Assembly: GCF_003334765.1 (NCBI RefSeq)
Contig: NZ_QOWT01000002.1
Direction: 5' to 3' (one strand)
DNA from: Escherichia coli
GTDB lineage: Bacteria; Pseudomonadota; Gammaproteobacteria; Enterobacterales; Enterobacteriaceae
DNA length: 64,000 nucleotides
Part shown: one piece after another, positions 59,830 through 64,000 of the stretch
Layout of the letters: every line of letters begins with the position of its first letter
Position numbering within the stretch: position 1 is the stretch's first letter
Notes under the pieces: model-generated
What the model was told of the DNA's origin: nothing
The model's database searches: none
The model's input: the letters and a program-made list of their open reading frames with translations, nothing else
Made by a program: the position numbers and the translations under genes

Positions 59830-60918
59830 ATGTCACCGCAGAATAATCATCTGCAGCGTCCGCCTGCCGCTGTGTTATACGCCGATGAACTGGCAAAATT
59901 AAAACAAAATGATAACGCACCTTGCCCGCCCGGTTGGCAGTTAAGTTTGCCTGCGGCCCGTGCTTTTATCCTTGGCGATAGCGCGCAAAATATTAGCCGT
60001 AAAGTGGTGATTAGTCCCTCTGCTGTCGAACGTATGTTAGTCACTCTTGCCACCGGGCGCGGTTTGATGTTGGTGGGGGAACCTGGCACCGCAAAATCTC
60101 TCCTGTCTGAATTACTGGCAACCGCTATTAGCGGCGATGCCGGGTTAACCATCCAGGGCGGGGCATCTACCACCGAAGATCAAATCAAGTATGGCTGGAA
60201 CTACGCCCTGCTTATCAATCATGGTCCGTCAACGGAAGCGCTGGTCCCTGCCCCGCTTTATCAGGGAATGCGCGACGGCAAAATCGTCCGTTTTGAAGAG
60301 ATAACGCGTACACCGCTGGAAGTGCAAGACTGTCTGTTAGGTATGCTTTCTGACCGGGTTATGACGGTGCCGGAACTCACCAGTGAAGCCAGTCAGCTCT
60401 ATGCGCGAGAAGGCTTTAATATTATTGCCACTGCCAATACCCGCGATCGCGGCGTCAATGAGATGAGTGCCGCGCTAAAGCGTCGCTTCGATTTTGAAAC
60501 TGTCTTTCCGATTATGGATTTCGCCCAGGAGCTGGAACTGGTCGCCAGTGCTTCGGCGCGTTTGCTGGCCCATAGCGGTATTCCGCATAAAGTGCCTGAC
60601 GCGGTACTGGAGTTACTGGTCCGCACCTTCCGCGATCTGCGTGCCAACGGCGAAAAGAAAACGTCAATGGATACCCTGACGGCAATTATGTCCACCGCTG
60701 AAGCCGTGAACGTGGCCCACGCAGTGGGCGTCCGCGCCTGGTTTTTAGCGAATCGCGCAGGTGAGCCAGCCGACCTGGTGGACTGCATTGCCGGAACCAT
60801 CGTCAAAGATAATGAAGAAGATCGCGCTCGTCTGCGCCGTTACTTCGAACAGCGTGTCGCCACACATAAAGAAGCTCACTGGCAGGCTTATTATCAAGCC
60901 CGCCACCGCCTGCCGTGA
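59830..60918 (+). CDS. yehL: MoxR-type AAA+ ATPase YehL
   Basis: 362 aa from MSPQNNHLQRPPAA; Walker A GEPGTAKS. The ORF-track start at 59764 is rejected. Confidence 0.88.
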   Translation: MSPQNNHLQRPPAAVLYADELAKLKQNDNAPCPPGWQLSLPAARAFILGDSAQNISRKVVISPSAVERMLVTLATGRGLMLVGEPGTAKSLLSELLATAISGDAGLTIQGGASTTEDQIKYGWNYALLINHGPSTEALVPAPLYQGMRDGKIVRFEEITRTPLEVQDCLLGMLSDRVMTVPELTSEASQLYAREGFNIIATANTRDRGVNEMSAALKRRFDFETVFPIMDFAQELELVASASARLLAHSGIPHKVPDAVLELLVRTFRDLRANGEKKTSMDTLTAIMSTAEAVNVAHAVGVRAWFLANRAGEPADLVDCIAGTIVKDNEEDRARLRRYFEQRVATHKEAHWQAYYQARHRLP

Positions 60919-60928
60919 GGAAAGATGC

Positions 60929-63208
60929 ATGAGCGAGCCGTTAATTGTCGGCATCCGGCATCATAGTCCGGCCTGCGCCCGGCTGGTGAAATCGTTAATC
61001 GAAAGCCAGCGGCCACGATACGTGTTGATTGAAGGCCCGGCTGATTTTAATGACCGGGTAGACGAACTGTTTTTAGCCCACCAGCTTCCGGTAGCTATTT
61101 ACAGTTATTGCCAGTATCAGGACGGTGCAGCCCCCGGGCGTGGTGCCTGGACGCCATTTGCTGAATTTTCGCCGGAGTGGCAGGCGCTACAAGCCGCTCG
61201 TTGTATTCAGGCACAAACTTACTTCATCGATTTGCCTTGCTGGGCGCAGAGTGAAGAAGAGGACGATTCGCCTGATACGCAAGAGGAAAGCCAGACCTTG
61301 CTGCTGCGTGCCACCCGCATGGATAACAGCGACACCCTGTGGGATCACTTGTTCGAAGATGAAAGCCAGCAAATTGCATTACCCTCTGCGCTGGCGCACT
61401 ATTTTGCCCAACTGCGCGGCGATTCCCCCGGCGATGTACTCAATCGTCAGCGCGAAGCCTTTATGACCCGCTGGATTGGATGGGCGATGCAGCAAAATGA
61501 TGGCGACGTATTGGTTGTCTGCGGTGGCTGGCACGCTCCGGCACTGGCAAAGATGTGGCGCGAATGCCCTCAGGAAATTAACAAGCCAGAATTGCCCTCG
61601 CTGGCAGATGCCGTTACAGGTTGTTATCTCACACCCTACAGTGAAAAGCGCCTTGATGTGCTGGCAGGATACCTTTCAGGAATGCCTGCCCCGGTATGGC
61701 AAAACTGGTGCTGGCAGTGGGGCTTGCAGAAGGCCGGTGAACAACTGCTAAAAACTATCCTTACCCGTTTGCGCCAGCACAAATTGCCCGCTTCTACCGC
61801 GGATATGGCTGCCGCTCATCTGCATGCGATGGCGCTGGCACAGTTGCGCGGTCATACACTACCGTTACGCACTGACTGGCTGGATGCCTTAGCAGGCTCG
61901 CTGATTAAAGAAGCCCTGAATGCGCCGTTGCCGTGGAGCTATCGCGGCGTTATTCATCCCGATACCGATCCGATTCTGCTAACGTTGATAGACACATTAG
62001 CGGGTGACGGATTCGGTAAACTTGCCCCTTCTACGCCACAACCGCCTCTGCCAAAAGATGTCACCTGCGAACTGGAACGTACCGCAATCTCTCTTCCGGC
62101 GGAGCTTACCTTAAATCGCTTTAACCCCAATGGACTAGCGCAAAGTCAGGTGTTACATCGGCTGGCAATACTGGAGATCCCAGGGATTGTACGCCAGCAG
62201 GGAAGTACACTGACACTTGCAGGCAACGGTGAAGAACACTGGAAATTAACCCGCCCGCTTAGCCAGCATGCGGCATTGATTGAGGCCGCCTGCTTTGGTG
62301 CAACACTCCAGGAAGCCGCACGCCATAAATTAGAAGCCGATATGCTGGACACGGGTGGAATCGGCAGTATCACCACATGTCTTAGCCAGGCGGCGTTAGC
62401 GGGTCTGGCGTCCTTCAGTCAACAATTACTGGAGCAACTCACATTATTAATCGCCCAGGAAAATCAATTTGCCGAAATGGGCCAGGCGCTGGAAGTGCTA
62501 TATGCCTTATGGCGGCTGGATGAAATTAGCGGTATGCAAGGCGCGCAGATATTACAAACGACGTTATGCGCGGCTATCGATCGCACGCTGTGGCTGTGTG
62601 AATCTAACGGCAGACCGGATGAAAAGGAGTTTCACGCTCACCTGCATAGCTGGCAAGCGCTTTGCCATATCCTGCGCGATCTACATAGCGGCGTTAATTT
62701 ACCCGGCGTTTCTCTTTCTGCGGCGGTAGCCTTACTGGAGCGACGCAGTCAGGCGATTCATGCCCCGGCGCTGGATCGCGGCGCGGCTCTTGGCGCACTA
62801 ATGCGTCTGGAACATCCCAACGCCAGTGCCGAAGCGGCGCTGACGATGCTGGCGCAGTTATCCCCGGCACAATCCGGTGAGGCGCTGCACGGTTTGCTGG
62901 CATTAGCCCGTCATCAACTGGCCTGTCAACCTGCATTTATCGCCGGTTTCAGCAGTCATTTAAATCAACTAAGTGACGACGATTTTATTAACGCCCTGCC
63001 CGATTTACGCGCGGCAATGGCCTGGCTACCGCCACGAGAACGCGGGACGCTGGCGCATCAGGTGCTTGAGCATTACCAGCTTGCGCAGCTTCCTGTTTCA
63101 GCGCTGCAAATGCCGTTGCATTGTCCACCACAGGCCATTGCACATCATCAACAACTCGAACAGCAGGCACTGGCATCGCTGCAACACTGGGGAGTTTTCC
63201 ATGTCTGA
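60929..63208 (+). CDS. yehM: Large protein of unknown function YehM
   Basis: 759 aa from MSEPLIVGIRHHSPACARLV; ATG at 60929 is in frame with the 60761 ORF and has a gagg RBS. The ORF-track extension overlapping yehL is rejected. Confidence 0.85.
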   Translation: MSEPLIVGIRHHSPACARLVKSLIESQRPRYVLIEGPADFNDRVDELFLAHQLPVAIYSYCQYQDGAAPGRGAWTPFAEFSPEWQALQAARCIQAQTYFIDLPCWAQSEEEDDSPDTQEESQTLLLRATRMDNSDTLWDHLFEDESQQIALPSALAHYFAQLRGDSPGDVLNRQREAFMTRWIGWAMQQNDGDVLVVCGGWHAPALAKMWRECPQEINKPELPSLADAVTGCYLTPYSEKRLDVLAGYLSGMPAPVWQNWCWQWGLQKAGEQLLKTILTRLRQHKLPASTADMAAAHLHAMALAQLRGHTLPLRTDWLDALAGSLIKEALNAPLPWSYRGVIHPDTDPILLTLIDTLAGDGFGKLAPSTPQPPLPKDVTCELERTAISLPAELTLNRFNPNGLAQSQVLHRLAILEIPGIVRQQGSTLTLAGNGEEHWKLTRPLSQHAALIEAACFGATLQEAARHKLEADMLDTGGIGSITTCLSQAALAGLASFSQQLLEQLTLLIAQENQFAEMGQALEVLYALWRLDEISGMQGAQILQTTLCAAIDRTLWLCESNGRPDEKEFHAHLHSWQALCHILRDLHSGVNLPGVSLSAAVALLERRSQAIHAPALDRGAALGALMRLEHPNASAEAALTMLAQLSPAQSGEALHGLLALARHQLACQPAFIAGFSSHLNQLSDDDFINALPDLRAAMAWLPPRERGTLAHQVLEHYQLAQLPVSALQMPLHCPPQAIAHHQQLEQQALASLQHWGVFHV

Positions 63209-64000
63209 ACTGAACGATCTTCTGACCACCCGTGAGCTACAACGCTGGCGATTAATTCTTGGCGAAGCGGCAGAAACGACGCTTTGTGGGCTGGATGACA
63301 ACGCCCGGCAGATAGACCACGCGCTGGAATGGCTGTATGGGCGCGATCCTGAACGGCTCCAGCGTGGTGAACGCTCCGGTGGATTAGGTGGCTCAAATCT
63401 CACCACCCCTGAGTGGATCAACAGTATTCACACGCTGTTTCCGCAACAGGTGATTGAGCGGCTGGAAAGCGATGCCGTACTGCGCTATGGCATTGAAGAT
63501 GTGGTGACGAATCTCGACGTGCTGGAACGTATGCAGCCTTCTGAAAGCCTGCTACGCGCCGTTTTGCATACCAAACATCTGATGAACCCCGAAGTACTGG
63601 CTACCGCCCGCCGGATAGTGCGCCAGGTTGTTGAAGAAATTATGGCTCGACTGGCAAAGGAAGTTCGTCAGGCTTTTTCTGGTGTCCGCGATCGCCGTCG
63701 CCGCTCATTTATTCCACTGGCGCGAAACTTTGATTTCAAAAGTACTCTGCGCGCCAACCTGCAACACTGGCACCCGCAACACGGCAAGTTGTATATCGAA
63801 TCCCCCCGATTTAACAGCCGCATTAAACGCCAAAGCGAACAATGGCAACTGGTCTTACTGGTTGATCAAAGCGGCTCGATGGTCGATTCGGTGATCCACT
63901 CTGCGGTGATGGCGGCCTGTTTGTGGCAGTTACCCGGCATTCGTACCCATCTGGTGGCGTTTGACACAAGCGTCGTTGATCTCACGGCAGACGTTGCCGA
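63201..64000 (+). CDS. yehP: vWA-domain protein YehP; runs off the window end
   Basis: ATG at 63201 overlapping the yehM stop; MSELNDLLTTRELQRW...; MIDAS motif LVLLVDQSGSM near the window end. Not in the ORF track because no stop lies within the window. Confidence 0.85.
   Translation, partial: MSELNDLLTTRELQRWRLILGEAAETTLCGLDDNARQIDHALEWLYGRDPERLQRGERSGGLGGSNLTTPEWINSIHTLFPQQVIERLESDAVLRYGIEDVVTNLDVLERMQPSESLLRAVLHTKHLMNPEVLATARRIVRQVVEEIMARLAKEVRQAFSGVRDRRRRSFIPLARNFDFKSTLRANLQHWHPQHGKLYIESPRFNSRIKRQSEQWQLVLLVDQSGSMVDSVIHSAVMAACLWQLPGIRTHLVAFDTSVVDLTADVA

Follow-up and report, generated by a model that had tools for sequence, protein, structure and literature searches.

Six adjacent Escherichia coli genes, covering ~12 kb and found in ~99% of complete genomes, are still without a known function, and one of them, yehL, names one of the seven subfamilies of MoxR ATPases (PMC3893208). 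They are located at the 3′ end of the stretch analyzed here, a 64,000-nucleotide piece of the E. coli chromosome (contig NZ_QOWT01000002.1; hereafter the window), in the order molR, yehI, yehL, yehM, yehP and, past the window end, yehQ. What does this locus encode, and do its two halves, molR-yehI and yehLMPQ, belong together? As judged from gene order, the locus is the E. coli form of a conserved, horizontally mobile cassette comprising a DUF4132 protein with or without a WGR domain (one to three copies), a MoxR-type AAA+ ATPase, a DUF5682 protein, a CoxE-type vWA protein and a SWIM protein. Its products, those of the DUF4132 genes included, very probably form one multi-protein system.

Gene coordinates were carried over from the RefSeq annotation of NZ_CP042350 (locus position 14001 corresponds to window position 59500). 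A program-made list of open reading frames (ORFs) concurs with them, and yehL, yehM and yehP lie exactly where an earlier note, made from the sequence alone, had placed them. The six genes are as follows (here and below, L followed by a number denotes one of the loci examined).

51709-55503, plus strand: molR, 1264 amino acids; WGR domain, long helical region and C-terminal DUF4132.
55513-59145, plus strand: yehI, 1210 amino acids; DUF4132 paralogue without WGR.
59830-60918, plus strand: yehL, 362 amino acids; MoxR-type AAA+ ATPase.
60929-63208, plus strand: yehM, 759 amino acids; DUF5682.
63201-64337, plus strand: yehP, 378 amino acids; CoxE-type vWA protein. The window ends at 64000, leaving the first 266 of the 378 codons inside it (full gene at L001:17702-18838).
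Past the window end: yehQ, 667 amino acids; SWIM.

Related loci were sought in six-frame translations, first using five query protein sets and afterwards family hidden Markov models (HMMs). Those examined comprise four loci from exact-protein look-ups, 80 metagenome loci and a number of annotated plasmid loci, and their taxonomic profile is a sample rather than a census. In every locus with enough sequence the order AAA_5, DUF5682, VWA_CoxE, SWIM is invariant and on one strand, the vWA gene standing two genes 3′ of the YehL-type ATPase gene. Upstream sequence was sufficient in 58 non-Escherichia loci: in 46 of them, between one and three tandem DUF4132 genes stand directly 5′ of the ATPase gene, on the same strand, and four more have DUF4132 elsewhere in the locus (50/58 in total). 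Plasmids give a similar picture: 24 of the 29 records in a plasmid collection that carry a YehI homologue also carry a YehM homologue, and wherever coordinates were compared, no more than a few kb separate the two. Flanking genes vary from locus to locus, and the adjacency recurs in Proteobacteria, Actinomycetota and Bacillota. These counts support well the suggestion of the earlier note that the whole 12 kb might be one functional island. The note had named independent inheritance of yehLMPQ and molR/yehI across genomes as an outcome that would refute it; the counts do not refute it, the coupling being strong, if not absolute.

The complete five-gene order is present on a Streptomyces linear plasmid, where three of the four junctions (D/L, M/P and P/Q) are 4-bp overlaps, on an Iodobacter mobilisable plasmid and on a Bacillus mycoides plasmid. 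On a Sinorhizobium conjugative plasmid (L087:7872-18360) the genes run AAA, DUF5682, DUF4132, vWA, SWIM, with DUF4132 inside the operon itself. The Iodobacter cassette (L088:15092-18749, on a 76.8-kb plasmid) has as its neighbours a type I restriction-modification system, several insertion sequence (IS) elements and a gene for a PDDEXK nuclease, surroundings that resemble a defence island. A second architecture, type B, has genes for a short SWIM protein (~460-500 amino acids) and a DUF5691 or HEAT_2 protein placed ahead of the AAA-DUF5682-vWA core. It was found, with DUF5691, on Rhizobium and Deinococcus plasmids (L089:4113-11448 and L092:3759-11805) and, with a HEAT_2 protein, in a metagenome-assembled genome (MAG), where it stands in tandem with a type-A cassette (L005:15598-23468). 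Comparison of these loci indicates that the cassette is kept in the same order across at least five phyla (including Proteobacteria, Actinomycetota, Bacillota and Deinococcota) as well as on plasmids.

In E. coli, the junctions from yehL to yehQ point to translational coupling. A gap of only 10 nt, holding a GAGGAAA ribosome-binding site, separates yehL from yehM, and the yehM stop codon (TGA, 63206-63208) falls after the yehP start codon (ATG, 63201-63203), producing the 8-bp overlap that the earlier note had read. The operon it proposed stands for yehL, yehM and yehP but was drawn one gene too short, as yehQ, which overlaps yehP by 4 bp, also belongs to it. Several complete genomes match the 4.5-kb query 59500-64000 with 100% identity. 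Of 5426 complete E. coli genomes 5371 contain it, in almost all cases at 95-100% identity, and in 5211 of these the match covers at least 80% of its length. In ~96% of complete E. coli genomes all four yehLMPQ reading frames are intact, with high conservation. The DUF4132 half appears to be a recurrent target of insertion and decay, while yehLMPQ remains intact: an IS2 element splits yehI in the otherwise identical strain RM10410 (L001:8678-13646), a blaCTX-M-15 transposon lies within the metG/DUF4132/yeh region of an ST131 sublineage (PMC9334617), and the molR of K-12 is disrupted (PMC3950696).

The four proteins of the yehL operon can be considered in turn. YehL matches AAA_5 (E = 4.6e-34) and carries the Walker A motif GEPGTAKS at residues 83-90 (60076-60099), as had been noted from the letters. 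Conservation in 31 non-redundant homologues extends to this motif (at least 95%), the sensor-1 motif ATAN and the motif ALKRRF. At the Walker B position (60283-60297, residues 152-156), IVRFEE has E-E where D-E is usual, an acidic pair being kept, and this holds for at least 95% of the same homologues. Among solved structures, those nearest to it in sequence are Midasin's AAA modules (E = 3e-10) and 2r44 (E = 6e-4), an uncharacterised protein according to its deposition. Starting from an in-frame ATG at 59764 would lengthen YehL by 22 residues; the start at 59830 is favoured because family conservation begins only at QRPPAE.

YehP is a strong member of VWA_CoxE (PF05762, E = 3.2e-72). The DQSGS motif of its metal ion-dependent adhesion site (MIDAS), at residues 222-226 (63864-63878), lies inside the window, where the earlier note had found it; GGGT and SDF follow beyond 64000. 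Across 35 non-redundant homologues DxSxS (DQSGS), GGGT and D...EG are conserved, together with an N-terminal RWRLxLG motif that is part of a conserved region of ~150 amino acids; a four-helix N-terminal domain has been described for CoxE-type vWA proteins (PMC7159879). The protein terminates with its vWA domain. An AAA_5 protein that is the type member of a MoxR subfamily is thus encoded together with a CoxE-type vWA protein whose MIDAS is conserved, and the MoxR-vWA pairing proposed earlier holds. NCBIfam models returned sub-threshold AAA and vWA matches only. YehQ matches SWIM weakly (E = 1.3e-3); 34 non-redundant homologues keep its first SWIM signature (C.C....CRH) but not a second SWIM-like motif, and the protein is fast-evolving outside the first finger.

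YehM, the largest product of the operon, had been described as having no recognisable motif by eye. By eye this is so, but the structure model reveals more. The only Pfam match of YehM is DUF5682 (E = 3.3e-97). The model, built from an alignment of 61 diverse homologues, is confident (predicted local distance difference test, pLDDT, 93; predicted template modelling score, pTM, 0.90) and shows a TraB/ChaN/EreA-like domain at the N-terminus (residues ~1-240, 60929-61648), then an alpha/beta part in the middle and, at the C-terminus, HEAT-like repeats. The N-terminal domain is predicted to share the three-dimensional fold of the TraB/TIKI/EreA/ChaN superfamily, and it is here that the residues invariant in the 61 homologues cluster: R10 H11 H12, E35, H51, S81 P82 E83, D101, R175 E176 and G199 G200 H202. 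The core of this set is kept across both cassette types and five phyla. The order and spacing of H11/H12, E35, R175-E176 and H202 parallel those of H41, E67, R228 and H252 in YbaP, an E. coli member of the TraB family. YehM is therefore, on the model, a protein with a hydrolase-like domain and an invariant His/Glu/Arg set.

The predicted link to the TraB superfamily is at the level of the fold only. Searches of YehM against the PDB with phmmer and with the family profile gave chance-level matches only, and a Foldseek search of the model against the PDB returned nothing at E ≤ 1e-3. There is no Pfam match to TraB_PrgY_gumN (PF01963), and hhalign against the YbaP-family alignment, which is shallow (members at least 65% identical to YbaP), gave a probability of 0.4%. 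Among the members of the TraB/PrgY/GumN-TIKI-EreA-ChaN superfamily are proteases, esterases and also a haem-binding protein; YehM differs from them in having no detectable profile similarity and in being fused to ~500 residues of helical repeats. DUF5682 itself is a large family (2261 clusters at 50% identity, E ≤ 1e-3), with distant representatives that include a Vulcanimicrobiota MAG. In several lineages DUF5682 and VWA_CoxE are fused in single proteins of ~1120-1255 amino acids, which argues for a physical association of YehM with YehP.

The upstream half encodes the DUF4132 proteins. MolR contains a WGR domain (residues 6-69, E = 5e-18) and DUF4132 (988-1163, E = 5e-47); YehI is 37% identical to it over ~1180 residues and has no WGR region. 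A model of the C-terminal half of YehI (pLDDT 91) shows a HEAT-like solenoid together with small alpha/beta modules; an enzyme fold is not seen. The DUF4132 proteins and the C-terminus of YehM are thus shown by the models as HEAT-like repeat proteins.

If the two halves form one system, what separates them in E. coli? Between yehI and yehL lie a small gene and a small RNA (sRNA) locus, with the following features.

59206-59523, plus strand: yehK, 105 amino acids; Escherichia-specific.
59601-59629, plus strand: sigma-70-like promoter (TTGCAA, 17 nt, TATAAT), a consensus match only, positioned to start the OrzO-like sRNA.
59606-59579, minus strand: mirror-image promoter-like site, likewise a consensus match only.
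59643-59718, plus strand: OrzO/OrzP antitoxin sRNA, full-length match to Rfam RF02083 (101.3 bits, gathering score 60).
59693-59720: terminator, a stem at 59693-59713 and after it a T run (-23.1 kcal/mol, z = -10), which forms the 3′ end of the sRNA.
L094:698-787, minus strand, and L094:1033-1106, plus strand: the zorO-orzO pair of strain UTI89, for comparison.

The clean terminator that had been placed downstream of yehK is real, a strong hairpin with its T run, but it belongs to an orphan OrzO-type sRNA gene and is not yehK's own. We regard the antitoxin gene as an orphan because the window contains no ZorO-like toxin ORF. In UTI89 the yehK-yehL spacer is ~470 bp longer and holds a 29-amino-acid ZorO ORF (MDTLTQKLTVLIAVLELLVALLRLIDLLK) in addition to OrzO. 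The locus in the window therefore resembles the ZorO-OrzO type I toxin-antitoxin locus as regards its full-length OrzO/OrzP RNA, promoter-like site, terminator and shared spacer, but differs from it in having no toxin gene. The short spacer form seen in the window occurs in ~3360 complete genomes; the rest have an insertion. A candidate 39-amino-acid ORF with a hydrophobic N-terminus (MAWIINLIILIATGSS...; 59570-59689, plus strand) was also observed; it overlaps the 5′ part of the sRNA as well as the promoter region of OrzO.

As a candidate cassette member, yehK was rejected: it is found in Escherichia-type loci only, it is frameshifted in UTI89, and it has no similarity to the unrelated 145-amino-acid protein encoded at the equivalent position in Variovorax. 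The ancestral unit looks like a single operon that was split in E. coli by yehK and the zor-orz insertion.

Regulation bears on when the cassette might act. Two features lie at the 5′ side of molR.

49526-51568: metG.
51682-51701, plus strand: LexA (SOS) box-like site, AACTGGATAAAATTACAGGG, 8 nt 5′ of the molR start codon.

This site, CTGG-N8-ACAG, has one mismatch to CTGT-N8-ACAG and agrees with the 20-mer consensus at 13 of 20 positions; we take it to be the published molR SOS box. It is the only LexA-box-like site adjoining a cassette gene in 1.29 Mb of loci, and the window holds no perfect CTGT-N8-ACAG. An SOS box before yehL and conserved SOS boxes before the DUF4132 genes of other taxa were also considered and rejected, none being present in the loci examined. 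Two further LexA-box-like sites, outside the window, lie at L001:24836-24884 in strain RM10410, 5′ of a DinI-like gene at a prophage edge downstream of btsSR.

In published work molR is listed among the LexA-regulated genes with a known SOS box (PMC6590174), and BglJ-RcsB activates its promoter (PMC3950696). In hns/stpA mutants yehL and yehM are up-regulated, and H-NS binds nearby, in a region classed as intergenic by the authors (PMC3686432). Depletion of DdrO, the damage-response repressor, in Deinococcus radiodurans leads to strong derepression of a DUF4132 gene and of a WGR gene (PMC8533742). With the molR half of E. coli under LexA and BglJ-RcsB and the yehL promoter region subject to H-NS silencing, we favour a role for the cassette in stress, DNA damage or genetic conflict; this is the weakest step of our interpretation.

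By analogy with Midasin, RavA-ViaA, CoxD-CoxE and the chelatases, we propose a MoxR-vWA switch that acts on HEAT-repeat partners, with YehM as scaffold and hydrolase; taken as a whole, this mechanism seems to us somewhat on the likely side. YehL would assemble into an ATP-driven ring that drives YehP, which would dock onto the ring via its N-terminal helical domain and use its MIDAS site to grip an acidic residue or peptide of a partner. YehM, physically tied to YehP, would serve as a scaffold bearing a metal-dependent, hydrolase-type (TIKI/TraB-like) site. The DUF4132 (or DUF5691) HEAT proteins would be the dedicated partners that the motor remodels, loads, processes or releases, and the WGR domain of MolR and the SWIM finger of YehQ may be the parts that bind a signal or nucleic acid. 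Rather than bulk chaperoning, the machine would carry out processing or release as a switch-like event licensed by ATP.

Two of the systems on which this proposal draws illustrate how far the analogies extend. Midasin/Rea1, which supplies the nearest solved relatives of YehL, likewise has a MIDAS domain and an AAA_5 ring that pull on a partner, but it is a eukaryotic protein with ~4700-4900 residues in one chain, and it acts on pre-60S ribosomes; the analogy is mechanistic only. RavA-ViaA, the other MoxR-vWA pair of E. coli, also encodes an AAA+ MoxR protein and a vWA cofactor in one operon, and has been proposed to remodel or mature specific complexes (PMC3893208). It belongs to another MoxR subfamily, however, is a two-gene operon without DUF5682, SWIM or DUF4132 partners, and, unlike the yeh cassette, has known clients (among them the Nuo complex, PMC3893208).

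Several observations weigh against the proposed mechanism or against the unity of the cassette. The E-E in place of D-E in YehL suggests that its ATPase cycle may be unusual. DUF4132 is not universal in the sample: in eight of the 58 non-Escherichia loci none was in reach, and the family HMM added nothing, type-B cassettes have no DUF4132, and five plasmid records carry DUF4132 without DUF5682. Between the two halves in E. coli stand yehK, the sRNA gene and its strong terminator, the halves answer to different regulators, and no LexA-like box was found upstream of yehL. A conflict role is not favoured by the PADLOC defence models (PADLOC-DB v2), which matched none of eight proteins at E up to 0.01, nor by the near-universal presence of the cassette in E. 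coli and its mostly housekeeping neighbours elsewhere, which are atypical of defence islands. Finally, we found no functional study in the literature searched on yehLMPQ, DUF5682, DUF4132, DUF5691 or the combination of MoxR, vWA, SWIM and WGR.

The mechanism can be carried further, to a pan-bacterial surveillance machine in which a MoxR ring and MIDAS adaptor license YehM, as a TIKI/TraB-like hydrolase, to process or release HEAT-repeat WGR/DUF4132 sensors upon DNA damage or the arrival of invading DNA. We regard this extension as speculative and, as stated, improbable.

Partly overlapping with the proposed switch is a reading in which the cassette would defend against phages or plasmids in the manner of the MoxR-vWA 'ternary' systems, the invader being sensed by DUF4132/WGR and SWIM proteins and YehM acting as effector. 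This is unlikely, though a number of observations speak for it. MoxR plus CoxE-type vWA cores are documented in conflict systems (VMAP, iSTAND; Kaur et al. 2020, PMC7159879), where they are likewise joined by further obligatory components, diversify into paralogues, move horizontally and suggest a threshold-setting switch. That the yeh cassette moves horizontally is evident from its presence on plasmids, conjugative or mobilisable, and megaplasmids of Streptomyces, Rhizobiaceae, Bacillus mycoides and Deinococcus. The Iodobacter cassette with its restriction-modification and IS neighbours, the tandem paralogues of the putative sensor, the fast evolution of YehQ outside its SWIM finger, the two cassette types in tandem in one genome and the H-NS silencing of the yehL promoter region all fit such a role, as does the insertion of a type I toxin-antitoxin locus and mobile elements into the same E. 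coli region. The third component of the yeh cassette is, however, neither VMAP nor iSTAND, YehP has no C-terminal effector region, and the 2020 survey makes no mention of SWIM, WGR, YehL or TraB (PMC7159879). Nor was a recognisable toxic effector domain (nuclease, TIR or pore-former) found, and to the missing PADLOC matches and the housekeeping neighbours of most other loci must be added the 5371 positive genomes among 5426, at odds with the usual within-species patchiness of defence systems.

Phage genomes, too, are essentially devoid of the cassette, with one weak partial match. PHROGs families of 'unknown function' (e.g. phrog_20839, 30700, 31592 and 29006) do match MolR, YehI, YehK, YehM, YehP and YehQ (window 51709-63208 and L001:17702-20838) almost perfectly; these matches probably reflect host genes in prophage predictions and are not evidence of phage origin.

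A different role, as a metal- or cofactor-insertion machine of the CoxD-CoxE or class I chelatase type, would have YehL-YehP as motor and adaptor, a ChaN-like YehM carrying the metal or tetrapyrrole, and DUF4132 (~1200 amino acids) as a CobN/BchH-like large subunit or apo-client. We consider it decidedly unlikely. The CO dehydrogenase maturation system of Oligotropha carboxidovorans offers a parallel: a MoxR-type AAA+ gene stands beside a CoxE-type vWA gene, YehP is itself a strong VWA_CoxE member with a conserved MIDAS, and assembly of the Mo/S/Cu cluster of CO dehydrogenase requires both CoxD and CoxE (PMC4240915, PMC3471820). The class I chelatases (BchI/BchD/BchH and CobS/CobT/CobN) combine an AAA+ motor, a vWA/MIDAS subunit and a very large third subunit (~1200-1400 amino acids) in a similar way, and the YehM-YehP fusions recall BchD (AAA-like plus vWA). 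Weak matches of YehL to GvpN and of YehP to cobaltochelatase models, fold matches to ChaN and BchI, and the historical annotation of molR as 'molybdate metabolism regulator' point in the same direction.

In contrast to these systems, the yeh cassette has no CO dehydrogenase or other metalloenzyme genes nearby and neither CoxF nor CoxG. It has three other constant partners (DUF5682, SWIM, and DUF4132 or DUF5691), and the YehL subfamily is distinct from that of CoxD. No tetrapyrrole pathway context was seen; no metalloenzyme or cofactor-biosynthesis gene consistently adjoins the cassette, the flanks differing per taxon. No homology of DUF4132 to CobN or BchH was detected, and no chelatase-like fold was seen in the C-terminal half of DUF4132, as modelled for YehI. 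WGR and SWIM domains are typical of nucleic-acid-associated proteins, and their presence argues against a maturation role, as does the LexA control of molR. In Deinococcus, the molybdate genes did not respond alongside the DUF4132 gene (PMC8533742). Tandem large-subunit paralogues and plasmid carriage would also be unusual for a housekeeping maturation factor.

That yehLMPQ and molR/yehI are mere neighbours in E. coli, or a decaying silent relic without current function, is very improbable and already contradicted by the synteny data: the terminator and sRNA gene between the halves, their different regulators, the disruptions of molR (K-12), yehI (IS2, RM10410) and the DUF4132 region (transposon, ST131 sublineage) and the listed deletion of the operon, apparently without penalty, in the genome-reduced strain DGF-298 would suit it, but the adjacency of DUF4132 to AAA-DUF5682-vWA-SWIM recurs in Proteobacteria, Actinomycetota and Bacillota with unrelated flanks, the yehLMPQ frames are intact in ~96% of complete E. 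coli genomes, and the catalytic-type motifs are invariant across very large evolutionary distances.

Databases already list the genes with their domain labels, and the name of the YehL subfamily is years old. In the literature searched, we found no description of the whole system, of its two architectures, of how widely it extends across phyla and plasmids, of the hydrolase-like domain predicted in YehM or of the HEAT-repeat nature of the DUF4132 partners. Viewed as a cassette of five components, a set of orphan y-genes becomes a defined system with a testable ATPase, a MIDAS adaptor, a candidate hydrolase, HEAT-repeat partners and a zinc-finger protein. If its role lies in genome stress or conflict, a new architecture would be added to the MoxR-vWA switch systems, and the surveillance reading, if true, would mean that the best-studied bacterium carries, in its near-core genome, an inducible system of a new class, serving immunity or the response to genome stress; if the role is cofactor maturation, a missing client would be revealed. 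Either role, if true, would settle the function of the YehL branch of MoxR ATPases.

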